Below are positions 489 through 64,000 of a stretch of 64,000 bases of DNA, one piece after another; the first letter of the stretch is position 1, and every line of letters starts with the position of its first letter. The DNA is from a virus. Lineage: Duplodnaviria > Caudoviricetes. The stretch lies in the IMG/VR virus record IMGVR_UViG_3300024346_000006; one strand, written 5' to 3'. Both the position numbers and the translations under genes were made by a program. The notes beneath the pieces are model-generated. The model had not been told where the DNA came from. It ran no database searches and was given only the letters and a program-made list of their open reading frames with translations.

Positions 489-548
489 TCAGGCACCATC
501 ATCTAAGGAGATATTTCAGTCAGTTCATACTACTACTTAGGTAAAATA

Positions 549-788: not shown

Positions 789-800
789 ATCTCTCTCCTA

Positions 801-1049: not shown

Positions 1050-1150
1050 TTCGTATCTCCATAGTGTATTTAATATTAGTCTTAATCATCATCAGCATAG
1101 TTATATTAACAGCTTGTCAAGAGGAAGTCAAGCACTTTTTTAAGTTTTTT

Positions 1151-1327: not shown

Positions 1328-1536
1328 TATACAACCCTCACAATGTAAGCGGGTTTACTAGGGTCAAGTTTAATCTCAGGATTAGTCACTTCTGTCACTA
1401 CATCCCATATTTCTGCATTCTTCAGTGCGTCAAACAAAAACTCAGAAACAACTCCCTCTCTTTTGGCCGCACGATCAGCAACATACTCAGAGTAGGTTTC
1501 AAAGTCAGTAATATGGTCAGTCATTTTTTCTCTCAT
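1327..1536 (-). CDS. Hypothetical early protein
   Basis: 69-aa ORF directly downstream of the promoter repeat copy at 1536-1626. Confidence 0.65.
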   Translation of the reverse strand: MREKMTDHITDFETYSEYVADRAAKREGVVSEFLFDALKNAEIWDVVTEVTNPEIKLDPSKPAYIVRVV

Positions 1537-1626
1537 TTCTCATTGAATACAGGTGTATTATGACAGGTTTCCAAGGATAAGTCAAAGATTATTTTGGAAC
1601 AAGAAAGGGTTTTTTAAGAACTTTTT
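1536..1626 (-). repeat. Promoter-containing direct repeat, copy 1 (about 91 bp; TTGACT-17-CATAAT)
   Basis: Aligns with 2193-2283 at offset 657; -35 at 1580-1585, -10 at 1557-1562. Confidence 0.8.
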
Positions 1627-1632
1627 GATATA

Positions 1633-2181
1633 TCAGGCAGCACGAGCGAAGACAAACATCTCCTTCATTCCATCGTATATTTCTTTAGTAGGATGCCATA
1701 TTTCACGTTCCTCTTCGTCAATACCAACGACAAAAGGCATACCACGTTTTGACTTAGTATATACTTCAAGGTCATTAGATTGAGCAAGATCAAACCAAAT
1801 CTTTCGGCCACCTTTCGACTGAGCCGTGCCAGCTTGTAAAGTAATTCCCAGTTTCTTAATGATATAACGGTAAGCTTTAGCAGCAATACCACGACCACCA
1901 TAACGATGATCCAGTCGAGCCATGTTGATATGGAAAGCATCTTTGAAGTATTCTGTTGATAGGTTGATCTCAAGGACGATTTTAACTCGCTGAGGACTTC
2001 TTCCATGAACCACACTGGTATCTACTACCATTACCTCAAGGTAACCTTCAGGCGATTGCATCGAGTTATCAACCCAAACTTGTAGCTTGGAGAAAGAACC
2101 TAAACGAACCCAAGTATCATCATTTGCTTTAGTATCAAAGTATCCTAATGCAAATTTCTTCTTCATCTCAATACGATCCAT
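1633..2181 (-). CDS. GNAT-like (acetyltransferase-fold) phage protein
   Basis: RYGGRGIAAKAY resembles GNAT motif A (R/Q-x-x-G-x-G/A); AQSKGGRKIW follows. Confidence 0.5.
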   Translation of the reverse strand: MDRIEMKKKFALGYFDTKANDDTWVRLGSFSKLQVWVDNSMQSPEGYLEVMVVDTSVVHGRSPQRVKIVLEINLSTEYFKDAFHINMARLDHRYGGRGIAAKAYRYIIKKLGITLQAGTAQSKGGRKIWFDLAQSNDLEVYTKSKRGMPFVVGIDEEEREIWHPTKEIYDGMKEMFVFARAA

Positions 2182-2192
2182 TCTTGTTTCCT

Positions 2193-2283
2193 TTTCTCAT
2201 TGAATACAAGTGTATTATGTCAGATTGGCGGGAATAAGTCAAAGATTATTTTGGAATAAGAAAGGGAGTTTTAAGAACTTTTT
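2193..2283 (-). repeat. Promoter-containing direct repeat, copy 2
   Basis: Near-identical to 1536-1626 except in the promoter spacer. Confidence 0.8.
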
Positions 2284-2666
2284 TTCCAGTTCTTTCGAAA
2301 TAACTTTTCTTCTTGAGCGTAAGCAGAGATTTCCCAAGGCTGTGTCTCGTAGTCACAGGCAGAATAATTGCGGCCTTTGTACATATATCCGTCAACTAAT
2401 TCCTTTTTGATAAATTGTTTCGCATGTACCATTTCATGGGCGAGTGTCTGCATCATCTGAGGCATATCCCCAGACTTCCAGATGTCAATATAGACGAATT
2501 TCTCAGAACCCCAACAGAGTCCAAGACAATCATCTAAATCTTTTCGAAAGCGAATTTGAATTAAACGGGAATAATATCGGGAAATACCTAGATCTTTTTC
2601 TAGATCTTTTACATATTGGTATACTTTTTCAGAGTCTTTAATACGTCCTAATGCAACAACCGCCAT
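2271..2666 (-). CDS. Putative zinc metallopeptidase (HExxH)
   Basis: TLAHEMVHAKQ zincin motif and downstream PWEISAY Glu ligand. Confidence 0.65.
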   Translation of the reverse strand: MAVVALGRIKDSEKVYQYVKDLEKDLGISRYYSRLIQIRFRKDLDDCLGLCWGSEKFVYIDIWKSGDMPQMMQTLAHEMVHAKQFIKKELVDGYMYKGRNYSACDYETQPWEISAYAQEEKLFRKNWKKSS

Positions 2667-3220
2667 ACAGAGAATTCTCTAACCAAACAATATGCATATT
2701 TTCGCATAGCTAGAGGCCTATGTCAAGCGTATTCTGAAGTTTTTTTCATGAATTTTTTCGATGATTCTCTGAGTATTCATCGATTTTCCCTATGATTTGT
2801 TTGAAACCCCTCAGCGGCGCTCAGAAAAATGCTCTGCAGATTTAGACCAAGGGGGTAAATCTTTGTAGCCTCCATATTTCTATGGTTTCTGCAACAGATT
2901 CAATGGTTTTTTGTGGGTCTCAGTGGGAAATCGTGGGATATTTGAAAGAATTTCTAAAAACCTTCGACTATTCTTGGAAGGCAATTCAGTATTAGACAGT
3001 GCATTTCCAATCCTAATAGTACTCCAAATGCAAAGCATTCTTCTTTACTGCAATACTCTATAAATGTATAGAATTTTTCCATTGGTTTTCATCCTCTGAG
3101 GACTATTTATACTAATTCCATATATGTCCATGTAAGACTAAAAACCACTATCAGAATACTCAAGCATTCTGTCTTTGTAATAACTCTAAACATTATTGAA
3201 CTTTTCATTTACCTTTCTTA

Positions 3221-3427
3221 TTATCCTATTGTATTTACATATCCAGTGCGATTAAATAAATCTGCAGGGTTGCACTGTGGCTGACTCCTACAGTTCCTTA
3301 TATTTTGTTCCCATTGTGATGGTTCCGGCATCCAATCAAAATCAGGCCTCTCCTTGCGTTCTGTAGTCGATGAACTACACGCAAAGAGGACTAACGATAG
3401 TATTGGAATTATAAGTGTTTTTTTCAT
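3221..3427 (-). CDS. Small lipoprotein
   Basis: Probable start MKKTLII (3427), hydrophobic stretch and lipobox LFAC. Confidence 0.55.
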   Translation of the reverse strand: MKKTLIIPILSLVLFACSSSTTERKERPDFDWMPEPSQWEQNIRNCRSQPQCNPADLFNRTGYVNTIG

Positions 3428-3497
3428 AGCATTTCTCCAGTGTGTTGAATAGAGCATACTACGAAATTACTCTTATATAGGTTTTCTTACTTTTGTG

Positions 3498-3671
3498 TTA
3501 AATTGTAACTTCTACGAACTTTCTTCGTGACTTACTGAACTGCTTAGAGGGTGAAGAAAAGTACTTTAATTCCTTTGTACCTTTTTGTATGTATCCTACA
3601 CATTGTCCATTCTTAAAAGCATAGGTATGATTAGGATATTCCCACTCTGTAACTTCTTTTAGAAATTTCAC
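3498..3671 (-). CDS. Small hypothetical phage protein (57 aa, GTG start)
   Basis: Manual translation VKFLKEVTEWEYPNHTY...KQFSKSRRKFVEVTI; RBS ggaagag upstream. Confidence 0.5.
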   Translation of the reverse strand: MKFLKEVTEWEYPNHTYAFKNGQCVGYIQKGTKELKYFSSPSKQFSKSRRKFVEVTI

Positions 3672-3970
3672 TCAGTCTCTTCCTGTATGATAAAATTAAC
3701 TTTTACGATATTATCTTTTTCTTTCTTTATAAAGAATTCTAATTCATTCTCTATAAAAATCTTTCTTAATTCATTCAGCGTAACTTGTCTTAATTCCATT
3801 TTCATTCAGTCTTTTCCTTAGAATCTACTGGTTTCTCAGTCACTGTACTCAATCGGGCATTGTTAAATTCTTCCTCATGAGCTTTCTTTGCTTTTTTCTT
3901 TCCAAAGATACGATCCCAACCATCATCAAATGTTTTTTGATCTACTGTGCGTGGACGTTGTTTACTTCCT

Positions 3971-4387
3971 TTACTCATTCGATACCTCTATAAATTTACC
4001 ATCTACAATTTTAAATACACCGTCAAGTCCAGTAGAGCGAATGTATTGTCTACCACCATCAATCATTTTACCATCATTGAAAATACAATCGTGATGAGAA
4101 GACGAATAGTACCAATTGTTGTCTGAGTCTTTGATCATACCAAACTCAAAGTCTTCTACAATATCAGCATTAGTAATCATCATAGAATCTCTAATGTTGT
4201 CGTGGTACAAACCAAAGTAACGATTACCAAACTCTGGATGTGGTGTATCTCTATAGTAAACATCAACTGGCACATCACTTGCGGTTAAATCAGTAGTACA
4301 CACATACTTAACAGGAACACCGTCTTTTTCTGTGTAATGTGATTCTACTTTGTCAATGTTAAATACATTTGCATGTTTAATGTCCAT
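3971..4387 (-). CDS. Hypothetical phage protein
   Basis: 138-aa ORF translationally coupled to 4387-4809. Confidence 0.7.
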   Translation of the reverse strand: MDIKHANVFNIDKVESHYTEKDGVPVKYVCTTDLTASDVPVDVYYRDTPHPEFGNRYFGLYHDNIRDSMMITNADIVEDFEFGMIKDSDNNWYYSSSHHDCIFNDGKMIDGGRQYIRSTGLDGVFKIVDGKFIEVSNE

Positions 4388-4809
4388 TAGAACTCCTTTA
4401 GTTCTCTCTTTGTCGAATATAATGCAGCAGCATTTCTCATGATATTAGGGTCATCTCTGAAATTACTTGCACCAGTATTGCATATATGACAAACCCAAGC
4501 AATAAACTTTCCTGTCTTATGACAATGATGCAAGACGAAATCTTGTCTCCACTTCACATAACCCTTTTCTCTCATATCGTCTACACTATCATGACAGGCA
4601 GGACAACGATATGTTCTTATATCTGGTTTTGGATGAAACTTCTTCAAGATCTTTAATTGATCTTCTGATTTCTTTCTACACTCTTTGCACTTGCTACGAA
4701 CATATGTCGTATCCATAGCAAATTCATTGAGAGGTTTACTTTCTCGACATTCACTACATTTCCTACATGCAATCTCTATCGATTCACCAAAAACATCTAC
4801 GACTTGCAT
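4387..4809 (-). CDS. Endonuclease VII-like (His-Me finger) nuclease
   Basis: CxxC pairs plus LHHCHKTGKFIAWVCHICNTGASNFRDD, matching the EndoVII DHxH..G.RG.LC..CN..G pattern. Confidence 0.7.
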   Translation of the reverse strand: MQVVDVFGESIEIACRKCSECRESKPLNEFAMDTTYVRSKCKECRKKSEDQLKILKKFHPKPDIRTYRCPACHDSVDDMREKGYVKWRQDFVLHHCHKTGKFIAWVCHICNTGASNFRDDPNIMRNAAALYSTKRELKEF

Positions 4810-4816
4810 CTACTTC

Positions 4817-5191
4817 TTACTTTATTTGTTCATCTTCTGGAAAGTCTGCAGCATCAACTTGAAAAGAAGGATATCCATACGGCAAACTTCCATCAGAAAC
4901 TGAATTGAGTTTACTAGGGGCACGATCCCAATCAATCTCAGAAGTCTCTGCACGTTTCCGCATCTCATGATACTCTGTGCAGACTGCTTCGAAGGTGTCC
5001 CATAATTTCGAAAACTTCACATCATACAGTTCTTTGATACCAAAGTAACGATTCATCAATGCGTCACATACTTTGGGATCCAGTCCTTCCCAAGTAGGAC
5101 TATCTACGAAGTTGGATGTAACGACATCGATATCATCACATACATTCCAACAATTCATTATCTCTTGTTCTAAATCAAAAATTTTACTCAT
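4817..5191 (-). CDS. Hypothetical acidic phage protein
   Basis: 124-aa ORF in the early operon. Confidence 0.65.
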   Translation of the reverse strand: MSKIFDLEQEIMNCWNVCDDIDVVTSNFVDSPTWEGLDPKVCDALMNRYFGIKELYDVKFSKLWDTFEAVCTEYHEMRKRAETSEIDWDRAPSKLNSVSDGSLPYGYPSFQVDAADFPEDEQIK

Positions 5192-5351
5192 GTGTCATTG
5201 CACTCTTTAGTTGTTGAAGGTAAATTTCGAACTTCTCAATCATTCCTTGTGCAGCGTCTACCGCACGATCATCACCCATTTCTTTGTATGTCTGAATGTT
5301 ACTTTCACACGCAGCGATATAACCTTGGAGTTCAGAAATCATTCCTTGCAT
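5184..5351 (-). CDS. Small hypothetical helical protein
   Basis: Probable start MQGMISE downstream of the promoter at 5382-5410. Confidence 0.55.
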   Translation of the reverse strand: MQGMISELQGYIAACESNIQTYKEMGDDRAVDAAQGMIEKFEIYLQQLKSAMTHE

Positions 5352-5381
5352 TTTTCTACCCTTCTTGCATATTACTCTATC

Positions 5382-5410
5382 ATTATAGAGAAAGTACTTC
5401 ACAATGTCAA
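5382..5410 (-). promoter_or_regulatory. Consensus sigma70-type early promoter TTGACA-17-TATAAT
   Basis: Minus strand reads TTGACAttgtgaagtactttctcTATAAT. Confidence 0.85.
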
Positions 5411-5472
5411 GCACTTTCTCAGAGAAATGTGAAAAAATTTACGGGCGTAATCAGCAGGGCGGTCACAGGCGG

Positions 5473-6993
5473 TCAGGTCAGATTGACAGAACCCATTGAT
5501 CTATTCTCCCCAGAGTCTTGAAGAACAAGATTCTCAGTAGAGTTAGATCCCCCATTATGTTTAGAGACTATGTGTCCTCTATCGAATCGATTCAAATCAC
5601 GAATAGATACCCGATTTCCTTTTGAGTCTTTTCGGTCGTTTGCTTCCCATACGACTTCTTTCTGTGACATTGGTACTGAAAGAGCTGCATCGATAACGAT
5701 GTTGTCATTTTTCAAATGTTCCTCATTTTCGATGAATTTTTTGCAGAGCAATTCTACTCGACAACGAATAAACTCATCTTTGGATTCGGAACATGCCCAG
5801 AAGAAACCATTCGGTACTTTTGTAGGTGTTGGTAATTTTACTCCATTAGTGCCATGAGTGATACGTCCAGCCGGGTCATCTCTCATTGATTTTTGTGCTG
5901 CATCATACTCTTTTACAAAAGCTTCTACATCTTTTATTTTCCATGAAGGAGTCGCAATATCCGTATACACTCGATTGTCCAGTTGATATCGGAAATAGAT
6001 ATAGTTTCGTACCATTACATTGTTATACGTTTTTGCAGAAGACATGGTTTTCATTCCTTTTGCAAATTCACGAAGATAACCCCTTACTTGTTCTACTTGA
6101 GTTTTTGTAACAGTCTCTGTACCAGCAAACATGAGTTCATGAGCACCGATTTTTGAAGAAGATGGTTGTGTGCCTTTCGCAATCCAGTAAAATACTTCTG
6201 ACAAAAACAATTCGTTTCCTGCAAGGTCTTCACTATATGTTTTCCCAGAAACACTTTGCAGTGCAGTAATTGCAATTTTGTCATGAATAATTGATGACAA
6301 TTGGCGGCGATAAGTTGAGAACCAGAAACGTGTAATCATTTTCTGCCATTCTGTCCATGGATATCCTTCATTTTTCGCAATCAATGCGTTTACGAGTTCT
6401 TGAATATCTCCCTCTTCTGCAACCATGTACAACAATTCGATGTTCAAAAATGCGTGTTGAAGAGATTCGTGCAACTCTTTGAAATGTTTTCCTTGTGCAT
6501 ACTCTACAACTTTTCCATTCTCATCTACAACTGGAATATCTGTAGCCCCAAGAGGAAATTCGTTGTTGATAAACGGAGCAATAGCATTTAAAATTCGGTT
6601 TTGTCCGTCAATGATATAGTTTTCAACACCAGCGGCAACATCTTTTCGAATTTCTTCAATCTCCTGTGCAAGTGCTGTTTTTCGTTCTTTTTCAATAGTG
6701 CGGTCGTGTTCATTAAGTAAACCTTGCAATAGAAGGTTCGCAGGCACAACGATAATTTTATCCAAGAATTCCAATCCTTGAATTACAGTATTGAGATAGG
6801 ACTGCCTACGGTGGTTGTCCCATGCATCTTTTTGTAGTTTTCGTTGAAGTAATCCTGCCGCAGTTGATAATACTGCATATGGGGTGTTGTTCCCATTTTC
6901 ATCTTTTATTGGTGTTGCAAGTTTGAATAAATCACCAACAGTAATAGTTTCCAGAAAAAATCTAGTTTTTTTTGCGAATTGTAGCTTTGACAT
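5473..6993 (-). CDS. DUF262 (ParB/Srx-like) + C-terminal HNH protein, GmrSD-like endonuclease
   Basis: N-terminal LLQR...W...YIIDGQNR (DUF262 signatures); C-terminal DRGHIVSKHNGGSNSTENLVLQDSGENRSMG (HNH). Confidence 0.7.
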   Translation of the reverse strand: MSKLQFAKKTRFFLETITVGDLFKLATPIKDENGNNTPYAVLSTAAGLLQRKLQKDAWDNHRRQSYLNTVIQGLEFLDKIIVVPANLLLQGLLNEHDRTIEKERKTALAQEIEEIRKDVAAGVENYIIDGQNRILNAIAPFINNEFPLGATDIPVVDENGKVVEYAQGKHFKELHESLQHAFLNIELLYMVAEEGDIQELVNALIAKNEGYPWTEWQKMITRFWFSTYRRQLSSIIHDKIAITALQSVSGKTYSEDLAGNELFLSEVFYWIAKGTQPSSSKIGAHELMFAGTETVTKTQVEQVRGYLREFAKGMKTMSSAKTYNNVMVRNYIYFRYQLDNRVYTDIATPSWKIKDVEAFVKEYDAAQKSMRDDPAGRITHGTNGVKLPTPTKVPNGFFWACSESKDEFIRCRVELLCKKFIENEEHLKNDNIVIDAALSVPMSQKEVVWEANDRKDSKGNRVSIRDLNRFDRGHIVSKHNGGSNSTENLVLQDSGENRSMGSVNLT

Positions 6994-7123
6994 CGCATTC
7001 TCCTTTTTAATAAGCGTCTTCGATCTTCGATAGACTGTCCAAATACTTGGATGTTTTTTTAGGTCGTTACCAAGTTTATCGACTCAAAGTGTGGGGGGCA
7101 TTGCACCCCCCTAGTTTTTATTG

Positions 7124-7396
7124 TTATACCGCTTGTGCAGCCAATGCCCTATAACCAGCAGCAACAACTGAACGAGGTGGAGTACCAAGACGGTAGAAAG
7201 TCTTAGAGCGTCCCTTAGTATCAGTGTGCTGGTTTGCAAAAATTGCAAAACCCTTCATACGAAGACTAGATACTGTTGCTCGAGCGTTTCCAACCTTGAA
7301 TTGGTTTTCAATCTGAGCAGCAGTCAAGCCCTTATCATTATTACGAAGAGCCTCAAGGACTCGATCTTGTTTTGTCACAACATTTGCATTAGCCAT
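7124..7396 (-). CDS. Small winged-helix DNA-binding protein
   Basis: RVLEALR..GLTAAQI..F.V.NARATVSSLR..G wHTH pattern; own promoter at 7456-7485. Confidence 0.6.
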   Translation of the reverse strand: MANANVVTKQDRVLEALRNNDKGLTAAQIENQFKVGNARATVSSLRMKGFAIFANQHTDTKGRSKTFYRLGTPPRSVVAAGYRALAAQAV

Positions 7397-7490
7397 GTTT
7401 TACATTCTCCATGTTTTAGTTTAAGAAATACAGTTAGTGATTAACTGTTATAGACAGTATAACACAAAAAAACACTCTTTGTCAAGAAGT

Positions 7491-7700
7491 TTATTCATTA
7501 ATATACTGAATTATTTTAGACTTTACTGTTCCACCAGCAAGTCCAAGATTGACAACATATGATTCAGCATCATCATACGAGTCAAATACTACAGGCACCA
7601 TGTTAAAGTCACATCTGCCAGTATCTTCGGTTATATACATCCAAGTATCCTCTCTATCAGAAGGATTAATCATAACAACATATCTATTTTCATTTGACAT
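7491..7700 (-). CDS. Hypothetical protein
   Basis: 69-aa ORF. Confidence 0.55.
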   Translation of the reverse strand: MSNENRYVVMINPSDREDTWMYITEDTGRCDFNMVPVVFDSYDDAESYVVNLGLAGGTVKSKIIQYINE

Positions 7701-7832
7701 TTTGATTGCCTTTTAGAAATTTGTATAGTTTTACATAATATGCAAAACTTTTTGGATAGTGTATAGGACTTGGATGATGAGGAAACATCAATAGAAATTT
7801 TTTATATTCTAATTCTGCCTCCTCATAAGACA

Positions 7833-8108
7833 CTATACAATTAATCCACTAGTCTGTTCTGTCCATGCCTTTTGGACATCATCATTCGCCTCTGTAATGA
7901 ATACCGCATGTCGGATCTTCATTTCTTTAGGGTCTGGATTACCAGTTGCAGCAATACCATGTGCGAACCCCATATTTTGATTTTCACCAAACACAATCAT
8001 TCTGGGGTTACTAATAGTAATACCAGTGGAATCATCTTCGACTAATCGTCCAATAAACTCACCAACAGGCGTCACTACAGTGATAATTTGATTTTTTTCA
8101 TAACTCAT
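7833..8108 (-). CDS. Hypothetical small beta-barrel (Sm/SH3-like) protein
   Basis: IITVVTPVGEFIGRLVE...ITISNPRMIV alternating beta pattern. Confidence 0.55.
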   Translation of the reverse strand: MSYEKNQIITVVTPVGEFIGRLVEDDSTGITISNPRMIVFGENQNMGFAHGIAATGNPDPKEMKIRHAVFITEANDDVQKAWTEQTSGLIV

Positions 8109-8119
8109 TTTAGTTTCCT

Positions 8120-8560
8120 TTAAGTATTTAATCTAGATTGGGTTTGCATTCTCTCTTTTAGGTAAGTTTGATAGTGAACCCATTCACCATCTTTGATAAA
8201 TCCCCATTCTTTTTTCTTACCAAATCGAAAGAACAGTGTCCATACTGAACCACCTTGAGGAACTTCCAAATAGTGCAGACTTTCTGCCTTTGAAAATCTC
8301 ATGTGTCCAGGCCCTCTCCAAAACTTACCTTCTGGAGTGTGTTCCCAATAACCACCTTTTAGAATAATAGTAAAATAATCCCATGGATGGTCATGAAAAA
8401 CTGGTTCATCGGATAAAACTATTTTGTGTAGGTAGGCGTTAAAGGGAACTGCCCGTCCCTTTGAAAAATTATCTACCTTATCTCTAAACAATAAATGCCA
8501 GCGATGCATATATGGTGTACTACCATCTCTGTCATAGATAATTCTTTTCCTACCGAACAC
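8120..8560 (-). CDS. Cupin-fold phage protein
   Basis: YLHKI...FHDHPWDYFTIILKGGYWE...LHYL cupin His motifs; GTG start. Confidence 0.6.
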   Translation of the reverse strand: MFGRKRIIYDRDGSTPYMHRWHLLFRDKVDNFSKGRAVPFNAYLHKIVLSDEPVFHDHPWDYFTIILKGGYWEHTPEGKFWRGPGHMRFSKAESLHYLEVPQGGSVWTLFFRFGKKKEWGFIKDGEWVHYQTYLKERMQTQSRLNT

Positions 8561-8588
8561 TCAATTCTCCAATTCAAGTACTACGTCT

Positions 8589-8617
8589 ATAATACACTAA
8601 ATATTATGTAATGTCAA
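8589..8617 (-). promoter_or_regulatory. Early promoter TTGACA-17-TATTAT with extended -10 TG
   Basis: Minus strand TTGACAttacataatatttagtgTATTAT upstream of 8560. Confidence 0.7.
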
Positions 8618-8624
8618 TATGTTT

Positions 8625-9137
8625 TTATAAAATTCTTTCGTATGCCCATTCTGGTGTGTCTGTTCTACTCTTACCATTTACTACACCATCTGCACCAAAA
8701 GATGCGGCCCAACTATTTGGTTTTAATTTTGGTTCAATACCAGTCATACCAAGAACATAACCAGCTGCCTCTGATGCTGCACAATTAGAACCGTGTTGCG
8801 GATTTGTGTTAATGTCCAAATGTATTTCAACATCAAACTCATCAATAAAAGGTATCACTTGTGTATATAATTCACATACCTTTCTTACTTCATTTAACAT
8901 TCTCATTTTAGGTCTGTTTTTCTTTAAATCATAATCATCTTCATATGATATATTAGAAAATATCCGACAACCACTGTTTCCATTCATATGGACAATACAC
9001 ACTGCAGCGTATCTGGCCTTTTTCTTTCCTTTTTTAGTGAGAAAACGAACACTGTCGCACCCTAGATATATCTTTGTTCGATTATCTAGGGTGGATAACA
9101 GTTCTACCATATTCTCTATTTGAGTTGCTGTTAACAT
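8625..9137 (-). CDS. RNase H-like fold protein (DUF458-type)
   Basis: KIYLGCDS...EIHLDIN...SWAASFGAD acidic motifs typical of this family. Confidence 0.6.
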   Translation of the reverse strand: MLTATQIENMVELLSTLDNRTKIYLGCDSVRFLTKKGKKKARYAAVCIVHMNGNSGCRIFSNISYEDDYDLKKNRPKMRMLNEVRKVCELYTQVIPFIDEFDVEIHLDINTNPQHGSNCAASEAAGYVLGMTGIEPKLKPNSWAASFGADGVVNGKSRTDTPEWAYERIL

Positions 9138-9766
9138 TATTGTAACATGGCCCTTAAATTAAATGACATTGTTATTCTTTCATCACCAATATGTTCTGCA
9201 ACCCCATGTTCATAATCGGCGGGGAAGATTGCAACATAACCTTCTTTACCAGTATACTGAACCTCATTATTGAAATTTGTCGGCGAAGATTCAGTATTTT
9301 TTACATATAGAACACCAGATAGTTGGCCAACATGAGTATGCATTGGATTTACATCACCAGTATTTGCATAATTAATCCAAACACCCCAATCATAGTGATC
9401 TTGATTTCCATATAAAGAAACTCTATGACGTAAAATTTCTAACCTTTCTTCCATACTCTTTTTTCGCAATGGTGGATATGTTTTTGCAATATACAACTTT
9501 CCAAGTGCAATCAAATACGCCTGTGTGAAAGAAGACTCCTGTAAATGTTTAGGAACACTAATTTGATAACTGTTTAGTCCAGCATTAATATGTTCTAGTA
9601 ATATACTTAACTCATGATCTTTAAACTTTCTACAATGTTCAGTCCACTCCAGTAATTCTTGGTGTATCGCAGTTGGAAGTTTACCAACAAAAACTGGAGT
9701 ATTTTCTAAGAACTGAAACCCTTCGTATATGTTTAACAGATCCTTTACAGATTGTTGTTTCATCAC
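9137..9766 (-). CDS. 2OG-Fe(II) oxygenase-like protein
   Basis: WINY...NPMHTH...LSGVLYV...IFPADYEHGV...RITMSFN. Confidence 0.75.
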   Translation of the reverse strand: MMKQQSVKDLLNIYEGFQFLENTPVFVGKLPTAIHQELLEWTEHCRKFKDHELSILLEHINAGLNSYQISVPKHLQESSFTQAYLIALGKLYIAKTYPPLRKKSMEERLEILRHRVSLYGNQDHYDWGVWINYANTGDVNPMHTHVGQLSGVLYVKNTESSPTNFNNEVQYTGKEGYVAIFPADYEHGVAEHIGDERITMSFNLRAMLQ

Positions 9767-10146
9767 ATACTGTTTTCTGGATACTTTTCTGGTTCTTGTG
9801 TATCTTCATCGACTACAGTTGTATCCTCATCAACTACAACTTCTGCATCTTCCACTACAGTTTCGTCAAGGTTTTCTGGATTGACAAATACTTCCTTTTC
9901 AATTTGTGTTTCAGTACCCTCTGCATCAACCATATTAATTTTAGCGGATGATTGTGGGGCAACTTGCCCCGACAACCCCTGAGTTCTCATTGCATGAGCA
10001 ATCATTCTTCTAATACGTTTTTCTTGCAATTTTTGATTATTTTCTGCAACTTTCAACGCAAGCCGATGTTTTCTACGTTTAGTATTATGCAGGCCATGTT
10101 TTTTAGCCCTTTGTGCAACACCAGCTCTATCTTTTAGTTTATACAT
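9763..10146 (-). CDS. Hypothetical protein with basic N-terminus and acidic C-terminus
   Basis: 127-aa ORF, overlapping stop/start with neighbours. Confidence 0.6.
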   Translation of the reverse strand: MYKLKDRAGVAQRAKKHGLHNTKRRKHRLALKVAENNQKLQEKRIRRMIAHAMRTQGLSGQVAPQSSAKINMVDAEGTETQIEKEVFVNPENLDETVVEDAEVVVDEDTTVVDEDTQEPEKYPENSM

Positions 10147-55814: not shown

Positions 55815-58800
55815 CTATTTTATATAACTTGCAATTTTTTTGGCTCTGGGTTTATTACCGTATTTTTCCATCGCCATTTGTTCTACTTCTTTTTTAACTT
55901 GGTTCGTATTATATTTAGGGTTCATTTCTCTAACGATTTCTTCCATTTCCTTTGCATCTTTTTTATCGGAATTTTCAATGATTATATTGATTTCGTTAAT
56001 CTCTTCCCTTTTCATAATTTTATATGCAAGATCAACTAACTTAGGCAATGGAAGTTTTTCCATCTTAGACTTATTAGAGTCGTTGACCTTATCGTATATT
56101 TGAACAACTGCAGATGCAGTAAACAAATCAACGATAGTCCCTTTAATTTTCTTTGCCTGTTTGTTATCAACGATATCTCTCATATCATCAATAATAGACT
56201 CTGCAAAAAGTTCGGCCTCTTCTTTTAGTCCAAGTTTTTTTGCAAGGTCTGCGGCATCTTTGCCCATTCCATAAGAGTTGTCTTTGATTCTCTGTTTAAA
56301 CCAATTTTTAATTACTGGACGAGCATCACCCTTTGGATTTTTCTTACCAGCATCCGCAAGATCGTCAAACAATTCATCGTCACCCAAAAGACTATAAAGT
56401 ACCTCTGTTGCATCATCTCCCTCTTTTCCGAGAGTAATTGGTTTAGACATCAATTTCTTTAATGCAGTCACTTCGGATGACTTGTCAGCAAATGCCCAAG
56501 TACCTTCTTGCAAATCTTCATTTGTTAATTGGATTGCTTTGGAAATTGCAGGATCATCAGAAAGTCCTTTTGCAATCTTTTCAATTGTTCCGATAATCTG
56601 TGTCATATTACCACCCTTCCAACGAGGGTCATTAAGAACACCAAATGCCATCTTGTACTGTTTCGTAGAATACTTTTTCTCACTAATAGTTTCTAATTCT
56701 TCGAAAATTCTTGCTGCCTGTCCAAGAGATATAGTGTTAATCGCACCCATATCATCTAAAGTTCTAAACTTAATACTTGTTCTGTCTAGTTGTAGTTCGA
56801 CATCATAAACTTTTCCGTTTTTACCACGAATACTATAGATAATTCCATTTTTCATTTTTGGGCTACTACCCTTAATTTTTGGAGCACGTTCTGTAATTTC
56901 TTCTTTTATATCTACAGGCGAAACTGCCATATCTCCGAAAGCCATTGTAACTCCTCCATCTCTTTTGTACAAATATCTTTTAGCACTAGTAGGACTATCT
57001 TTTCTTGCCAGAGTAATTTTTTCTACTGTGCCGTTACGAACCATGTTCTTAGACTTGACAATATACTCAATAAAATCTTTACCCTTCTCTAACGCAGAGT
57101 CATGTTTGATTTTAACAGTAGAACCCTTTTTTAGTTTATCAAAAACTCTAAGTAACTTAGGGTCGTTCATCTTCATACCTTCAACCATTTCTGCCTTTGA
57201 AGACGCCTCTTGGACTTCTTCCTGTTTATGTTTTGCTCTGATTGTTGCAAGAAGTTCTTCACCCATTCTCTTACCCTGAGATGCACTAACATTAGTTGGA
57301 AACTTATCCATATTTGATGGTAAAGGCCTTCCAATCATTTTTTCGGATTCTTTTTGGCTCTGTGGTTTTGTAAGAGTAACAATCTTTAGAGTATTCTTAT
57401 TCTTGATCGACATAGGCGGCAGTTCTGCAGAAGCTCTAGACTGTTTAACACCCTTTTCGCTAGATGCCATCGCAACAACTTTGTTACCGTTTGCAGTATC
57501 AATCAGTGCATGGGTGTTTTTCATTGCTTCATTCATTTCTGGGGTTTCGTGAGAATATCCTAGTTTTTTCATGCGTTCATGATCTTCTGGTTTTTCTGCT
57601 TTGTAACCTTTACCTGTCTTTGGATCATACATCATATGTGGTTTGAATTCGCCTTCACCAAGTTCTACTTCTTCTTTGTACATGTTCAGTTCATATCTCT
57701 TGTTGTCAAGATTTGCAACTTGAATTTGTACACCTCTAGATTTACCCTTCTTATCAGTACCCATCAAACGATACGAATTAGTTTTTCCATTAGATGGTTT
57801 TTTAGGGCCCATAGCAACTTTATCGTCAATTTCATCTGGGTCGATTTCAATTCCAAGTTTTTTCTTTGCATGGTCATATGCATGTTTCATTGCACTAGAA
57901 AAGTCTTTGTGATATAACTCGTAACCAGTCGCAGACTTTGCTTCATCGAACCGCATTGAGTGTTGCCCAGTACTTCGAACCTTCTCTGCATCCTTCATAG
58001 TCTTGTAAGGTTTACCTTGGTTTACAAATTTACCCTTAGTCATAACCTGTACTTGGAAACCTTTGTTTGGGAGTTTATCAACACCCAACTCTTTACGAAT
58101 TTTGTCTTGTGCTTTGTTACCCAAATCAATGATACGAACCGTACCTTCTTTAGATGCTTCATCAAGATCTTCTCCAACAAGTCTTTTTGCATACGCATTA
58201 AACGACTTTTGATCTTCTACAGAGTCTTTACCTTTACCTAGACCTTGGAAAATTTCTCTCCATGCCTTTCCGTCATTCGTCTTTTTGAAGTATGCCTGCA
58301 GTTTAGCAGCAGTTTTTTTGTCAACATTTATAATTTCTTTATCATCATAAGATAGACTCCCAATTGCATGTTTACCAGCTCTAACTTCCCAACGTTCTTC
58401 TAAAATTTTATTAAAAATTTCTTCGGTGGTGATATCTTCTTTTCTATATCCAAGTTTCTTCAATTTCTCTTTAAATGCAGATTGTCTACCATCAAATTGC
58501 TTTTCGTTAGAAAGGTCTTTTTTACCTTGATCTTTATACATCAATTTCTGGAGTTTTTCTTTAAAGGCCTTTGTTCTACCATCCAATTCTTGTTTTTTAA
58601 TTTCGATAGAATCTTTTACAGCGTTTTCTAAATTTCCCCTGTCGTTACACATATCACATCCTTTACCTTCACACTTAACGCAAGGCATCTTTCCTTCTTT
58701 TACCGCCTTCGCAACTTTGTCAGAAATAGTGACAGGATACTCCTTATCGCCGAATTTAAATTTTGTCTTGCCTGCTGATTTCGCAGCACTAGCAGCACCA

Positions 58801-58970
58801 ATAAAGTCAGCAACATCTTCTTCTCTTACTTTTTTTGCAACATCCTTACTGATAGTGACAGGATACTCTTTATCGCCAAGTTTAAATTTTTTCTCACCAG
58901 CGGCCTGCGCTGCAGACGCTGCACCAATAAAGGCGGCAATGTCTTCAATTGTCATATTCTTTTTAAACAT
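55815..58970 (-). CDS. 1051-aa multi-module protein, putative capsid-internal polyprotein
   Basis: 42-aa N-terminal tandem repeat, CxxC-CxxC finger, many short modules separated by Glu-rich linkers. Confidence 0.6.
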   Translation of the reverse strand: MFKKNMTIEDIAAFIGAASAAQAAGEKKFKLGDKEYPVTISKDVAKKVREEDVADFIGAASAAKSAGKTKFKFGDKEYPVTISDKVAKAVKEGKMPCVKCEGKGCDMCNDRGNLENAVKDSIEIKKQELDGRTKAFKEKLQKLMYKDQGKKDLSNEKQFDGRQSAFKEKLKKLGYRKEDITTEEIFNKILEERWEVRAGKHAIGSLSYDDKEIINVDKKTAAKLQAYFKKTNDGKAWREIFQGLGKGKDSVEDQKSFNAYAKRLVGEDLDEASKEGTVRIIDLGNKAQDKIRKELGVDKLPNKGFQVQVMTKGKFVNQGKPYKTMKDAEKVRSTGQHSMRFDEAKSATGYELYHKDFSSAMKHAYDHAKKKLGIEIDPDEIDDKVAMGPKKPSNGKTNSYRLMGTDKKGKSRGVQIQVANLDNKRYELNMYKEEVELGEGEFKPHMMYDPKTGKGYKAEKPEDHERMKKLGYSHETPEMNEAMKNTHALIDTANGNKVVAMASSEKGVKQSRASAELPPMSIKNKNTLKIVTLTKPQSQKESEKMIGRPLPSNMDKFPTNVSASQGKRMGEELLATIRAKHKQEEVQEASSKAEMVEGMKMNDPKLLRVFDKLKKGSTVKIKHDSALEKGKDFIEYIVKSKNMVRNGTVEKITLARKDSPTSAKRYLYKRDGGVTMAFGDMAVSPVDIKEEITERAPKIKGSSPKMKNGIIYSIRGKNGKVYDVELQLDRTSIKFRTLDDMGAINTISLGQAARIFEELETISEKKYSTKQYKMAFGVLNDPRWKGGNMTQIIGTIEKIAKGLSDDPAISKAIQLTNEDLQEGTWAFADKSSEVTALKKLMSKPITLGKEGDDATEVLYSLLGDDELFDDLADAGKKNPKGDARPVIKNWFKQRIKDNSYGMGKDAADLAKKLGLKEEAELFAESIIDDMRDIVDNKQAKKIKGTIVDLFTASAVVQIYDKVNDSNKSKMEKLPLPKLVDLAYKIMKREEINEINIIIENSDKKDAKEMEEIVREMNPKYNTNQVKKEVEQMAMEKYGNKPRAKKIASYIK

Positions 58971-58998
58971 GAAAAATCTCCGTTTTTTTACTATTTAT

Positions 58999-61125
58999 CT
59001 ATTTTTTAACCTTGGCCCACAAATCTGCATCACCAGTAGTTCTTGTTTTCCCACCTGTGATAAAAGAATTCACTCTCGCAAACGCCCATTGTTGTGGAGT
59101 AGTTCCCGGCCTGTGGCCACCCTTCCAGGCCGCCATACCTCTATCATATACCTTTTTTAGAATTTCATATGAAATACCAGATTTATCTGCCTTTTTAACT
59201 AATCCAGCAATCTTTGCTTCGTCTAATGTCTCTGTACTATCTTCGCCAAACATCTGCTTATATTTCTTAGTATATTGTGAAGGTTTCGTTTCTGCATCTG
59301 TATCTCCAGGCGCTGGTTTATAAGAAGAATCTTTTCTATCTGGTTTAGATGCCTGTTTTTTAAAATGAGCAGCTCTTTTATCTTTAGTAGACTTGGACAT
59401 CTCATCACCATCAGCATCTTTTGCATAATACTTTTTTGGTTGAGATCCCTCTTTGTCTTTGATATCTGGGTCTTGAGTTGTCTTTCTTTCGTAAATAAAT
59501 TGTGAAAAACTTTTTATATTCTCTTCTAAATCTTCCGCAGAATAACCAAGTTTCTTTTTTAGTATATTCATTGCAGTTGCCATCTTAACTTGCATCCACT
59601 CATCGCCGTATCTTTTCTTAAAATCATCATCTGGCAAATCTTTTGCAATCTTTTCTAAATCCTTTTCTCTTTCTGGATTCATCTTAAAATCTTCTAGTTT
59701 ATTTCCGTCCTTGTCGTACTTACCAGATTTCTTTTTCGCAATCGCAATCGCAGCCTGTTGAGCTCTAGATACACCTTCATCTTTTCCAGAAATCCTGTCA
59801 CGGAAATCTTTTTTAATTTCTCCATCTGTCACTTTCTCAACATCTTGAATAATCTTTGGATTTTTTAATAATTTGCGTAGGTTGTTTTTAACTTCCCCAG
59901 CACTACTTGCATCTATATAAAAAGTAGGTAATCCTTCAATATCTACTTGATAATTTGCTTCCTCAAGACTTTCATATTTTAATTCTTTACTTGATGTAGA
60001 AAAATTCTTTTTACGCATGATTGTTTTATGTACAACTTCAAACTCACCATTCTTGTAATTGATGACTACAGGCAGATTTAAATTAGTTGACATGTCTTTG
60101 AGAACTGCTTCGATATCAGGATTTGACTTAATCTGCGAACCTTTTTTCTTTTGAATCTTTTTGAAAAACTTTTGAAGTTCTGCAACTTTAATCTCTGGGT
60201 CATTTCTTTTATCATTCATTCTGTCAACAAAATGTCTTGTAAATGTAACATCAATATCATACTTTGCAAGCATTCTATCTGCAAACTTTTCTAAATCATC
60301 AATTTGTTTTTGAGACACTTCCTCATTATTGTATATTTTTTTATATACCGTATCATAATCATCATCAATACCAATTTTAAAATCTAACTCTTTATAAACA
60401 GATTCCATCAATATTTCATCTTCGATATCTTCTACAATCTCTACAAATTCTGTTTCAATAAAACGTGAAAAGTCTGCATTGGTTGCTTCAAGAAACTCTA
60501 ACAATTCTTCACTTATATTCATTGACTTTCTGAGAGTATCAAATAATTTTTTTCCATTAGACTTTTCAAAGTCAGAAGGCAAACCAGATTTAAATCCGTT
60601 GAGTATTTTACCAGTTTTCGGGTCTTTCTCATCTTCATATCTATTTGCAGCTGCTGCTGCTCTCATTTTAGATGCTGACATACCAGCAACACCCTCTGCA
60701 TCAGGATCTCTTTCCCCCGCAGAAACTACTTCAATACCATCTTTAAAATCATAGAAACCATGGCTTCCTTCTTTACCATTATATTTGTTAAGTGTAGTTT
60801 TAAATTCTGTAACTCTATCTCCACCGACAACCATAATACATCTCTTATAACCCATGTCATATAACATAGGAGCAATCATAAATGCAGTCTTTGCATTTCT
60901 ATTAGAGATGATATTGCGAGAATACTTTGGAAACATCTTTTTCATAAAACCAACTTTAGTTTTATGATCTAAAGGATCTTTTTTGTCATTTTGTGAATGA
61001 CTAGGAAATACCATAAAGTCGGCGCCTTCTTTTTTAGCAACCGATGCAAGTTTTTTTATTAATTTTTCGTGTCCTGTGGTTGGGGGATTAAACCTACCAA
61101 ATGTAAAAATTACTGTATCTTTCAT
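58999..61125 (-). CDS. Cytidylyltransferase-like (HIGH-family nucleotidyltransferase) fused to several further modules
   Basis: TFGRFNPPTTGHEKL, VVGGDRV, MSASKMR; C-terminal VYDRGMAAW...HRPGTTPQQWAFARVNSF module. Confidence 0.8.
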   Translation of the reverse strand: MKDTVIFTFGRFNPPTTGHEKLIKKLASVAKKEGADFMVFPSHSQNDKKDPLDHKTKVGFMKKMFPKYSRNIISNRNAKTAFMIAPMLYDMGYKRCIMVVGGDRVTEFKTTLNKYNGKEGSHGFYDFKDGIEVVSAGERDPDAEGVAGMSASKMRAAAAANRYEDEKDPKTGKILNGFKSGLPSDFEKSNGKKLFDTLRKSMNISEELLEFLEATNADFSRFIETEFVEIVEDIEDEILMESVYKELDFKIGIDDDYDTVYKKIYNNEEVSQKQIDDLEKFADRMLAKYDIDVTFTRHFVDRMNDKRNDPEIKVAELQKFFKKIQKKKGSQIKSNPDIEAVLKDMSTNLNLPVVINYKNGEFEVVHKTIMRKKNFSTSSKELKYESLEEANYQVDIEGLPTFYIDASSAGEVKNNLRKLLKNPKIIQDVEKVTDGEIKKDFRDRISGKDEGVSRAQQAAIAIAKKKSGKYDKDGNKLEDFKMNPEREKDLEKIAKDLPDDDFKKRYGDEWMQVKMATAMNILKKKLGYSAEDLEENIKSFSQFIYERKTTQDPDIKDKEGSQPKKYYAKDADGDEMSKSTKDKRAAHFKKQASKPDRKDSSYKPAPGDTDAETKPSQYTKKYKQMFGEDSTETLDEAKIAGLVKKADKSGISYEILKKVYDRGMAAWKGGHRPGTTPQQWAFARVNSFITGGKTRTTGDADLWAKVKK

Positions 61126-61796: not shown

Positions 61797-62339
61797 TTAC
61801 CAGAAAAAATTACCACCACCACTTAATCCAAGTTGTTTTGCATACTTTGGAAGTCTACATGCCCAATAGCCTGGTTTTGTCTTATCGTTTTTCTGATCGC
61901 AATTATGTCTTGCAACAAAACTCTTTCTTGCCTCTGGGTCATTAATTTTTGCAGTCAATCCTGTTGTATCCCCAAATGAAATCTTAATTACATTTCCTTT
62001 ATCATTTTTAACATATACATAATACTTTTTCTTACCACCCCTCTTTGGGGAATTCAATTCTACATCTTCTTCCATCAAGGGGCAGTCTAAAGGAACATAT
62101 ACGGCATCAAATTCTTGTTTCTCAAACATCGCCCACTCACCAATATCTGTTTGTAACATTTCAATGTCGTAAAGGTCAAACTCGAGCTTACCTTCTTCAT
62201 ATAATTTTCTCGCCACTCTAAAGGTTTTGTAAAAATTATTTGAACCTAGACGAAAGACATTATCAATTAGTGGTATTTCATTCTGTCTATGATACAACAC
62301 CATTTCTTCTATATTTTGAAACTGTTTATAAGTTTTCAT
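61797..62339 (-). CDS. Putative capsid-internal protein with CTS-like N-terminus
   Basis: Probable start MKTYKQFQNIEE (ATGA overlap at 62336-62339); C-terminal KKYYVYV...ISFGD...RKSF.ARH.C. Confidence 0.6.
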   Translation of the reverse strand: MKTYKQFQNIEEMVLYHRQNEIPLIDNVFRLGSNNFYKTFRVARKLYEEGKLEFDLYDIEMLQTDIGEWAMFEKQEFDAVYVPLDCPLMEEDVELNSPKRGGKKKYYVYVKNDKGNVIKISFGDTTGLTAKINDPEARKSFVARHNCDQKNDKTKPGYWACRLPKYAKQLGLSGGGNFFW

Positions 62340-62839
62340 CTCAATAACTTCTCCAATTCTCTCATAGTCTTCGCTGGATTGATATGACGAATACCAATAC
62401 CACCTTTCGCTTCCCATTCTTTTATATTCTTAGGATAATCATCAATTAGAATATTTGGTTTATCATTTGTTGTAGCAAATTTCTGTTTATCTTCTCGTTG
62501 GACTAAATGTATTTTTCCATTCAATCTCAAATTTTTTGAAATCCAAGCTCTTTTACCTTTTTGCGAATTCGAATCTCTTTTGGAATATGCAGATAAAATG
62601 TTTGCATTGTACTTGTTTAACATTTTCCACATCTTTTCCGAGCCTGACATCCATGGTAGGGTGTGCCAAAAATCTTTCTTGGATTTAATATCTTCCCATC
62701 TTTCTTCTTTGTCGGTTGATGCAAAGTCTTTATTAAATGCGGTTGTATAACCGCCTGTGAAATTACAAAGAACTTCGTCCATATCACAATAAATTTCTGG
62801 CATTTCTTTTTCAAAAATATATTGATTGAAAGTTTTCAT
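62336..62839 (-). CDS. HAD-family 5'-nucleotidase-like protein with CTS-like N-terminus
   Basis: MKTFNQYIFE; IYCDMDEVL (DxD), ILS, LIDDYPKN. Confidence 0.75.
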   Translation of the reverse strand: MKTFNQYIFEKEMPEIYCDMDEVLCNFTGGYTTAFNKDFASTDKEERWEDIKSKKDFWHTLPWMSGSEKMWKMLNKYNANILSAYSKRDSNSQKGKRAWISKNLRLNGKIHLVQREDKQKFATTNDKPNILIDDYPKNIKEWEAKGGIGIRHINPAKTMRELEKLLR

Positions 62840-63129
62840 TTCATTAAACCTTTTATTACTTTTAGTGCCATCTTACCATCTGGGTGATGCGGATTAATAC
62901 TGACTTCATCCCCATTAACAAAATCAGAAATACTAGCTGACTTGCCAAGAGCAGTAATTGCTTTGTGTAGTGGATCTTTTGGATCGTATCTTCGTTCAAA
63001 ATTGGGTTTTCCTCTTAGTTCGACCCAGCTCTTTTCTTTAGTATCCCACATCTTAAGTACATCTTGATCTTTACCACGAACCAATTTGAGCTTAATACCT
63101 TCAGAAAGATATTGAGTAAAACCTAACAT
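62836..63129 (-). CDS. Small protein with CTS-like N-terminus
   Basis: MLGFTQYLSE; 97 aa. Confidence 0.55.
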   Translation of the reverse strand: MLGFTQYLSEGIKLKLVRGKDQDVLKMWDTKEKSWVELRGKPNFERRYDPKDPLHKAITALGKSASISDFVNGDEVSINPHHPDGKMALKVIKGLMK

Positions 63130-64000
63130 CAGTCATCGTCCATTTCGTCCATGATACTGTAATCATAAACAGCGTCGATGTAATCCTTTGCCTTCGTCAC
63201 TTTAGAAACTACCCACGCCTCCATTTCATATTCATTATTTTGTGGATTATCGACTTCTTCCATAAGTGCCTCTGCAAGTTCTGTGGACTTATTAGAAAGA
63301 ATGATGAGTTGTCTCAACATCATCTCCAAACTATCCTGTGCAAACTCTGCGTCTTCTATAAATAGTTCTTCTTTAATTCCTCTTGCGGCCTTTTCTGCAG
63401 AAATCCACTTTTTAGCGACAGTTTTAGTTGGTGATTTCTTTGTCCACGCTCCAATAGTTCTATATGCCCTCATAACATCTCTTTCAAAGTCTGCGCCGTC
63501 AGAGTTATCAATTACAAACATTTTTTCCTTAAATGCAGACTGAAATTTACCAATGTTTCCTTGAACACCTTTCCACATAGATTCAACTTCATTGTCTGGA
63601 AGACTTCTCGCTCTTAATCTATTTCGGTTTAATGCGGTGTCTAAATCGGTATTGACAAAAATCATTGCGGTTTCGTAACCCATCGCCTCTAACTTGTCTT
63701 TTTGTTTTTTAATTTTATCATAATCTTTTCCAGTACCATCGACAACAAGTCCAAGTCTACCCCTCATATATCCCGCCTGTTGCGCCGCAGTAAGTGCTTT
63801 TGCTTTACCTCTTACTTGTTGTCCAAGGTCAGAGAAAATATCATCTGGATTTCCTTTGTCCAGTCCCGACTTATCCAACGCCCTTTCAAATGCAGGGTCG
63901 GAGTTTACAACTCTCAATCCAAAAGAAGTAAGTGCAGTTCTACCTACAATAAAAGATTTACCAGAACCTGGCCCACCGGCGAGGAACACCGCCTTAAAGA
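63129..64000 (-). CDS. Zeta-toxin/AAA_33-like P-loop kinase, 5' end outside the window
   Basis: KAVFLAGGPGSGKS Walker A, VVNSD, LVVDGT, MIFVNT..A..RN..R.R; frame open to the window edge. Confidence 0.75.
   Translation of the reverse strand, partial: FKAVFLAGGPGSGKSFIVGRTALTSFGLRVVNSDPAFERALDKSGLDKGNPDDIFSDLGQQVRGKAKALTAAQQAGYMRGRLGLVVDGTGKDYDKIKKQKDKLEAMGYETAMIFVNTDLDTALNRNRLRARSLPDNEVESMWKGVQGNIGKFQSAFKEKMFVIDNSDGADFERDVMRAYRTIGAWTKKSPTKTVAKKWISAEKAARGIKEELFIEDAEFAQDSLEMMLRQLIILSNKSTELAEALMEEVDNPQNNEYEMEAWVVSKVTKAKDYIDAVYDYSIMDEMDDD

Follow-up and report, generated by a model that had tools for sequence, protein, structure and literature searches.

Architecture of the P0001 reading frame

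The stretch of DNA analysed here, called the window throughout, comprises the 64,000 nucleotides of IMG/VR virus record IMGVR_UViG_3300024346_000006 (Duplodnaviria; Caudoviricetes), whose source is a marine T4-like myophage resembling the cultured phage Melnitz. At 55815-58970 it carries an open reading frame (ORF) of 1051 amino acids plus stop, the product of which, P0001, was proposed in an initial annotation to be a virion polyprotein cut at sites of the prohead-protease type. The frame is real and lies on the minus strand, as do all features of the window given with coordinates below. Its product of 118 kDa has an isoelectric point (pI) of 9.3 and contains 15.8% lysine, and searches of Pfam and PHROG returned zero matches to it. 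From its sequence, P0001 is predicted to consist of about 14 small, mostly unrelated domains, here called beads, joined by short acidic linkers.

P0001 begins with MFKKNMTIED, and it and its close orthologues share the form MFK[KR]N[MI]TIED. The N-terminal tandem repeat of 42 residues described initially is present, with residues 9-50 and 51-92 identical at 31 of 42 positions (74%), and is missed by Tandem Repeats Finder on the DNA, where the copies are too diverged. Both copies terminate in V-x-E. Bead 1 (residues 1-50; 58821-58970) joins MFKKNMTIED to the first FIGAASAA...GDKEYPVT copy and ends in VRE/E, the slash marking a candidate cleavage, while bead 2 (51-92; 58695-58820) is the second copy and ends in VKE/G. 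The zinc-knuckle bead (93-191; 58398-58694) ends in ILE/E. It contains the CxxC-x4-CxxC finger that the initial annotation had also pointed out (C97-x2-C100-x4-C105-x2-C108), which is of the DnaJ type CxxCxGxG and forms a CxxCxGxGCxxC zinc knuckle at residues 97-108 (58647-58682), together with two copies of a DGRxxAFKEKLxKLxY motif. A second repeat in P0001, of 19 residues, occupies 128-146 and 158-176.

The remaining beads are numbered M5 to M15. M5 (192-271; 58158-58397) ends in LDE/A and is followed by M6 (272-343; 57942-58157; ASKEGT...QHSM), which ends in FDE/A and is absent from the orthologues at loci L002, L007 and L013. M7 (344-439; 57654-57941), ending in LGE/G, is the most widespread bead and occurs in 129 of 150 relatives. 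M8 (440-481; 57528-57653) bears a PHMMYDPKTG...GYxHE motif and ends in MNE/A, and M9 (482-588; 57207-57527), which ends in VQE/A, occupies another position in the L002 and L007 orthologues. A spacer of nine residues, ASSKAEMVE (57180-57206), is flanked by the candidate sites VQE/A and MVE/G and precedes the beta-rich M10 (598-694; 56889-57179; GMKMNDPK...), ending in ITE/R. M11 (695-764; 56679-56888) and M12 (765-822; 56505-56678) end in ISE/K and LQE/G, respectively. M13 (823-924; 56199-56504; GTWAF...) is the sole clearly acidic bead (pI 5.1) and ends in FAE/S, and M14 (925-993; 55992-56198; SIIDDM...) ends in INE/I. The last bead, M15 (994-1051; 55818-55991), has a conserved ...KKIASxxK end, is C-terminal in 16 of the 16 relatives having it, and is the only P0001 bead with a fixed place among relatives. 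The predicted fragments measure 42-107 residues, and 11 of 15 have a pI of at least 8.2.

A separate observation concerns M8, whose motif, PHMMYDPKTG...GY(T/S)HEKP, turns up across a variety of viral contigs of up to 184 kb (loci L039-L079), in many proteins with no other relationship. There it often forms the very N- or C-terminus, as with the ...KKMGYTHEKPKA that ends 353-residue proteins. Instead of being a domain, this motif may represent a terminal peptide signal in widespread use.

Candidate cleavage sites at bead boundaries

The prohead protease of T4, gp21, cuts after Glu in L/I-X-E (PMC9026906). All 12 hydrophobic-X-Glu sites originally listed for P0001 were located, at ILE191, LDE271, FDE343, LGE439, MNE481, VQE588, MVE597, ITE694, ISE764, LQE822, FAE924 and INE993, and two further candidates, VRE50 and VKE92, bring the total to 14. 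The P3 residue is L or I at 7 of the 14 and F, M or V at the other 7. By number, [LIVMF]-x-E is not above chance in P0001 (27 against 21.3±3.9 in shuffles, p=0.09), nor does [LI]-x-E stand out (12 against 10.8), so that counting alone is no proof and position is the informative property.

Bead boundaries were defined as the starts and stops of local homology to 150 representative relatives and were derived without using the motif. P0001 has 12 such breakpoints (340, 440, 477, 553, 570, 594, 695, 761, 821, 897, 920 and 993), ten of which lie within 5 residues of a hydrophobic-X-Glu site, a result equalled by 0 of 20,000 random placements (p<5e-5). The initial annotation would have been undermined by sites no more frequent at domain boundaries than elsewhere; instead, the sites concentrate there. 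Candidate sites of the gp21 type in probably exposed positions are a feature that P0001 shares with the T4 internal-protein class.

Bead shuffling and a common linker in uncultured phages

Exhaustive HMMER searches placed 3,721 clusters (50% identity) in the P0001 family at E <= 1e-3 and 1,485 at <= 1e-10; a literature search did not find a paper describing the family or its bead peptides. Statistics on architectures, linkers and bead edges were taken over the 150 representatives and rest on per-bead alignments (A2, A3), a single MAFFT alignment of 118 fragments against the full protein having misplaced 104. Segments of P0001 reappear in other proteins independently of one another and differently ordered, so the description of the modules as unrelated holds. 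Among the 150 proteins there are 101 architectures and 67 distinct ordered neighbour pairs, and the reshuffled and stand-alone modules that the initial annotation had suggested looking for are both found, the latter as a gene made of a capsid targeting sequence (CTS) and a single M7 bead.

The proposed gain and loss of beads by recombination is likewise borne out by comparison, as beads behave as autonomous units and have been gained, lost, duplicated and moved among relatives. Even between orthologues that are 69-79% identical, whole beads have been lost, duplicated or translocated, the breaks falling at 272/341, 437/596 and 920-924. Relative to P0001, close orthologues have lost M6 and M8 and have M9 translocated, and the zinc-knuckle unit (residues 94-130) is present in two copies at L002, L007 and L013 and in three at L008. 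Most of the breaks between P0001 and these close orthologues coincide with candidate sites. The duplication break at 130/131 does not fall on a hydrophobic-X-Glu site (its other end, 93/94, adjoins VKE92), and thus the joint is not used in every rearrangement.

Whatever beads flank it, the junction has the consensus (K)EEVELDE/, with A, G or S as the next residue, and it stands ahead of the non-homologous beads M6, M7, M9, M10, M12, M13 and M14. In 95 of the 150 representatives VELDE was counted 161 times altogether, where 0.2 occurrences would be expected; L[DE]E[AGS] exceeds expectation 19-fold, A, G and S being over-represented at P1' and D at P2. Per 1000 residues, bead edges contain 98 hydrophobic-X-Glu sites and bead interiors 4.7 (about 20-fold), and for [LI]xE[AGS] the densities are 32 and 0.5, respectively. 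At orthologous sites P3 and P1 are kept while P2 varies (ITE to LQE, ISE to LNE). The L/I-X-E rule of gp21, invoked in the initial annotation, fits this family linker, (E)EVELDE/[AGS]. Comparative support for a modular, shuffled, putative polyprotein with protease-type joints is strong.

The linker DNA in loci L002-L080 is unusually uniform (GAAGAAGTTGAACTTGATGAAGC). Of 33 distinct contexts, 21 use CTT for Leu, against a background of 30%, and 2 use TTA, the commonest Leu codon in these genes overall (33%). Given this synonymous bias, the uniformity of the motif may partly reflect recombination or shared descent and not selection by a protease. Such a bias would suit an intact multidomain protein that works uncut, for example by binding DNA or acting as a multivalent hub inside the infected cell or capsid, with the acidic EEVELDE segments as flexible spacers and recombination joints; extensive shuffling exactly at the linkers, the missing CTS of P0001 and the non-canonical P3 at half of its sites fit this explanation as well. 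However, the linker codons do vary synonymously, with four Val codons, six Leu codons and both GAT and GAC in use, and residues that stay fixed despite such variation argue for selection on the peptide. Furthermore, the pattern of L/I at P3, E at P1 and A/G/S at P1' recurs at leader ends and in head proteins of related phages, and a mere spacer needs no depletion of the motif inside beads. An uncut P0001 is therefore considered unlikely. To judge from the codon patterns, the joint probably also works as a recombination handle, offering micro-homology for bead exchange, or shares recent descent.

In rare relatives enzymes appear among the beads as well. The relative P0007 (956 residues) contains a P-loop kinase (Pfam Zeta_toxin/AAA_33) as a bead in a bead polyprotein, and a P-loop kinase of the same kind adjoins the P0001 locus (63129-63989), and the small beads therefore share a common exchange pool with the enzymes encoded at the locus. 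Among 10 long relatives, one has a kinase domain and one has DUF5824 and a DnaJ finger.

Leaders resembling the capsid targeting sequence and genes for single beads

The internal proteins of T4 are loaded through a 10-residue N-terminal CTS, MKTYQEFIAE, which is removed by gp21 (PMC8442874). In the 145 P0001 relatives that start with Met, the first hydrophobic-X-Glu ends at residue 10 in 35 proteins, at residue 9 in a further 14 and at residue 14 in another 12. CTS-like leaders, counted as a first site ending at residue 9-10, are accordingly present in 49 of 145; examples are MTRYSKTMSE/A, MKSFKQIRE/A, MKTLKQIRE/G and MKTLKQIRE/A.

A gene of 95 amino acids, recorded on 26 contigs, consists of the leader MKSFKHMMYE/K... 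and a single M7 bead, which is the exact architecture of the T4 internal proteins. It is also found at locus L086 (JGI 3300017737 contig, 53 kb; 357-10078), which is syntenic with the P0001 locus (DUF6267, nucleotidyltransferase, DUF5824, ..., DUF7207). The putative cargo of L086 is encoded by about 10 small separate genes, most of which have leaders of 6-11 residues ending in hydrophobic-X-Glu, such as MNFTDFITE/, MKKLTQITE/, MKSFKHMMYE/ and MKGFKQFTE/. Judged by its predicted genes, L086 is a natural unfused counterpart of the P0001 polyprotein.

For polyproteins of the leaderless type, the fixed C-terminal M15 and the usually N-terminal FIGAASAA bead are candidates for a new targeting signal. 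An anticorrelation between M15 and a canonical leader was marginal (Fisher p=0.014), is weakened by the 13-residue leaders of L025 and P0065, and was not used.

Prohead protease and head proteins of related phages

Cultured relatives recovered by tblastn are limited to four Melnitz isolates, phages of the Methylophilales OM43 in the Kyanoviridae, and a megablast search with the P0001 locus gave nothing useful. The gp21 family (PF03420) is represented in 5 of 9 records carrying family members, all of which except Melnitz are fragments. The five are a contig with a 74%-identical P0001 orthologue, Melnitz (gene 207) and 3 further contigs. Sites of the same form occur in the head proteins of the related contig or Melnitz: gp68 has MHSFLEFLEDDLDE/A (DDLDE/A), gp23 has QLNE/T and FLSE/A, gp22 has LEE/A and LEE/G, and the protease itself has ...ILVE/S.

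These observations also bear on the idea that P0001 has nothing to do with the head and acts in the cytoplasm as a polyprotein or multidomain protein, its likeness to gp21 sites being coincidental or another protease acting on it. The position of the gene amid genes for DNA metabolism would suit such a protein, and virion association is inferred from sequence comparison. On the other hand, CTS-like leaders are seen on P0001 relatives and on neighbouring genes, the family co-occurs with gp21-type protease genes, and Pfam matched no other protease domain in P0001. A role unconnected with the head is accordingly regarded as highly improbable.

A weak Peptidase_S77 match (E 1.6e-13) was noted in a 548-residue open frame of the 171-kb contig G003 (40578-40925, minus strand), within a few kb of a 195-residue CTS-led protein, MKGYREFLNE/S, that ends in the M8 motif (L083, L057). 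This frame would be an unusually long protease-domain protein.

Bead folds and comparison with known systems

AlphaFold models were made of M7 and M10 from deep single-bead alignments. The M7 model averages a predicted local distance difference test score (pLDDT) of 77, rising to near 88 in the core, and its elements run beta-alpha-beta-alpha-beta3; the M7 alignment contains 17 invariant columns. The M10 model is beta-rich and has a mean pLDDT of 66. Linkers on both sides of M7 and of M10 fall below 50 and, on these models, are probably exposed. Profile searches with M7 and M10 against PDB sequences gave no significant match (best E 0.009), nor did Foldseek searches of the PDB with the two models (best E 0.016 and 0.038; template modelling score <= 0.46). 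A wide VIA-align search with M7 had a best Z of 5.6, from generic PAS-/cystatin-like alpha+beta matches below the tool's noise level, and an ESM Atlas feature search with M7 returned only unnamed viral clusters (0.78-0.82).

The closest likeness is to the T4 internal proteins IPI, IPII, IPIII and Alt. P0001 resembles them in its small basic predicted products and in L/I-X-E followed by a small residue, and T4 internal proteins have been called 'highly basic' (PMC8442874). The leaders of P0001 relatives mostly have 9-10 residues and the pattern of MKTYQEFIAE, and related genomes include a gene for a gp21-family protease. The P0001 gene lies outside the head cluster, as do the internal-protein genes of T4. 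Whereas each T4 internal protein is single and is cut once, P0001 strings together as many as about 14 unrelated beads, and freeing them would take about 14 cuts; unlike IPI-III, it has no recognisable CTS and is known from sequence alone, and similarity to them in sequence or fold was undetected.

A second comparison is with the T4 core proteins gp22, gp67 and gp68, and with it comes another explanation, that P0001 is a prohead core or scaffold-type filler that is cut by the protease, with pieces that are discarded or only condense or space the DNA and are not injected effectors. T4 core proteins are indeed cut at many L/I-X-E sites into fragments (PMC9026906), the gp68 of a P0001 relative has the bead-linker form DDLDE/A, the P0001 beads are mostly basic, and neither modelled bead, M7 or M10, matched an enzyme or inhibitor fold. 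The T4 core proteins, however, are acidic or coiled-coil scaffolds encoded between the portal and capsid genes, and their fragments mostly exit the head. P0001 is basic, M7 and M10 are modelled as compact domains, and its gene stands apart from the portal-to-capsid cluster in which relatives have the genes for gp67, gp68, gp21 and gp22; neither location in a portal-protease-capsid cluster nor acidic or coiled-coil character was found. Also against a filler are the predicted folded state of the beads (42-107 residues), their conserved cores, exemplified by the invariant columns of M7, their existence as separate conserved genes, and the rare relatives with enzyme beads, namely the kinase in P0007 and nucleotidyltransferase fusions. 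A filler is thus rather improbable.

In the giant phages phiKZ and SPN3US, gp175 and gp245 are gp21 homologues that cleave after Glu at the motif S/A-X-E (PMC9026906; PMC10052503). The head and ejection proteins cut there, many of them internal to the head, are similar in having a three-residue motif, cleavage at Glu and propeptides with several sites. In contrast to what is proposed for P0001, these substrates leave one mature fragment while the propeptide is chopped away, and their sites are not linkers of interchangeable domains.

Polyvalent proteins, known from phages and conjugative elements, combine 2-15 domains per polypeptide in mosaic architectures and are predicted to be packaged and delivered with DNA (PMC5512222). 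P0001, with about 14 beads and 101 architectures in 150 relatives, has the same mosaic multidomain character but lacks the recognisable conflict enzymes of polyvalent proteins (metallopeptidase, ADP-ribosyltransferase, ParB-like, nucleases, lysozyme). Its beads are tiny and, in the absence of any Pfam match, almost all unassigned to a family. Processing of polyvalent proteins by their own peptidase domain has been proposed, while the conserved linker of the P0001 family suggests the prohead protease as the enzyme. RNA-virus polyproteins, such as those cut by picornavirus 3C, likewise yield many products from one ORF through a viral protease and short conserved junction motifs. This likeness is an analogy only, between different protease families and virus classes, and processing of P0001 would take place inside a capsid precursor.

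Proposed packaging and cleavage of a cargo polyprotein

In the preferred explanation, a marine T4-type myophage of the Melnitz kind uses P0001 as a cargo polyprotein, packaged and then cleaved by the prohead protease; the probability of this is put at slightly better than even (about 0.55). Each bead would fold independently, and the acidic linkers in between would be disordered. P0001 would be made late in infection and taken into the prohead core, where a gp21-type protease would cut it after the linker Glu residues. The freed beads, at 4-12 kDa similar in size to T4 internal proteins, would stay alongside the DNA and accompany it into the host. Any effector or anti-defence role of the beads is a guess by analogy with T4 IPI. 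In evolution, beads are passed between genes, the linker travelling along, and exist both as separate leader-bearing genes and as fusions in many orders. The initial interpretation, in which one gene product is packaged, cut into about ten small proteins and ejected with the DNA, is partly supported. Comparison bears out the modular beads and the gp21-type joints and adds the leaders within the family and the protease in relatives; late expression, packaging, cleavage, retention and ejection are inferred, and P0001 itself has no recognisable CTS.

Several points weigh against packaging and cleavage. A weight matrix built from family leaders did not find a CTS-like segment anywhere in P0001, scoring -2.3 at the N-terminus and 2.6 at best, where shuffled sequences reach a median best of 5.1. 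Half of the P0001 sites have F, M or V at P3, residues outside the T4 rule, and the chance-level number of sites and the Leu codon bias of the linker, both given above, count on the same side. The P0001 gene lies among genes of replication, nucleotide metabolism and lysis, outside the head cluster. The protease gene is seen in related contigs and not directly in P0001's own genome. Finally, virion proteomics was not found in the literature for any carrier, and the Melnitz paper is without any.

A broader proposal is more tentative and is held at somewhat less than even odds. Marine T4-like phages may share an ocean-wide combinatorial bead library, with dozens of families of 40-110 residues that are loaded into capsids singly, led by a targeting peptide of the T4 kind, or as long polyproteins, freed at joints of the EEVELDE/A type and injected as a cocktail of mini-effectors. 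The joint would be protease site and recombination handle at once, and the leaderless P0001 type would use a new targeting signal.

If cleavage and packaging of P0001 are real, the T4 route, in which internal proteins are loaded by a targeting peptide, cut by the prohead protease and injected, would extend from a few E. coli phage proteins to a 3,721-cluster family of abundant ocean phages. It would amount to a polyprotein strategy in double-stranded DNA phages, by which many small proteins are loaded in fixed proportion. A sequence rule of leader and linker would then predict injected cargo in metagenomes and so lead to new anti-defence or host-takeover mini-proteins. Just as the T4 CTS is used for T4, leader and linker could also become parts for loading marine phage capsids with foreign proteins. 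Since Melnitz, an OM43 phage cultured on Methylophilales H5P1, carries two family members (genes 20 and 21), the hypothesis is directly testable.

Candidate expression signals and neighbouring genes

A late-promoter-like box, GATAAATA (58992-58999), lies 22-29 nucleotides upstream of the P0001 ATG and overlaps the stop codon of the upstream gene, and a GGAG ribosome-binding site follows at 58978-58981. The T4 late-promoter consensus is TATAAATA. Perfect copies of it stand at -31 and -39 in the orthologous loci L003 and L025, exact copies precede tail-fibre genes within the window, and a late-promoter-like box is present in all P0001-orthologue loci. ATAAATA was not significantly enriched upstream of all family ORFs relative to other ORFs (p=0.12), and the box is consistent only in the orthologue group of P0001.

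On the minus strand the gene order is CTS-like-leader genes, a 708-residue nucleotidyltransferase-DUF5824 protein, P0001, an endoVII-like gene, DUF7207, spanins, primase and ribonucleotide reductase. Two of the upstream genes (62336-63129) have decapeptides like the T4 CTS, MKTFNQYIFE/K and MLGFTQYLSE/G. The nucleotidyltransferase protein (58999-61125) is built like P0001, with a TLDE/A site and the DUF5824 bead shared by the family, and begins right at its catalytic domain (MKDTVIFTFGRFNPPT). Homologues have a CTS-like leader (MKKFSEIIE/A... in Melnitz, ..KNFKSYLVE/E... in L086); in the window's protein the N-terminal leader has been lost, a further point against packaging, and only an internal CTS-like peptide, EDLEE/NIKSFSQFIYE/R, is kept. 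DUF5824, fused in this protein, is a separate gene of 72 amino acids in L086.

For a further ORF of 206 residues (61797-62417), the listed start is probably an internal Met. The sequence upstream of it, ...VIE-MKTYKQFQNIEE/M, is a CTS-like leader, and the C-terminus of the ORF product, ...GGGNFFW, is identical to the end of Melnitz gene 18.

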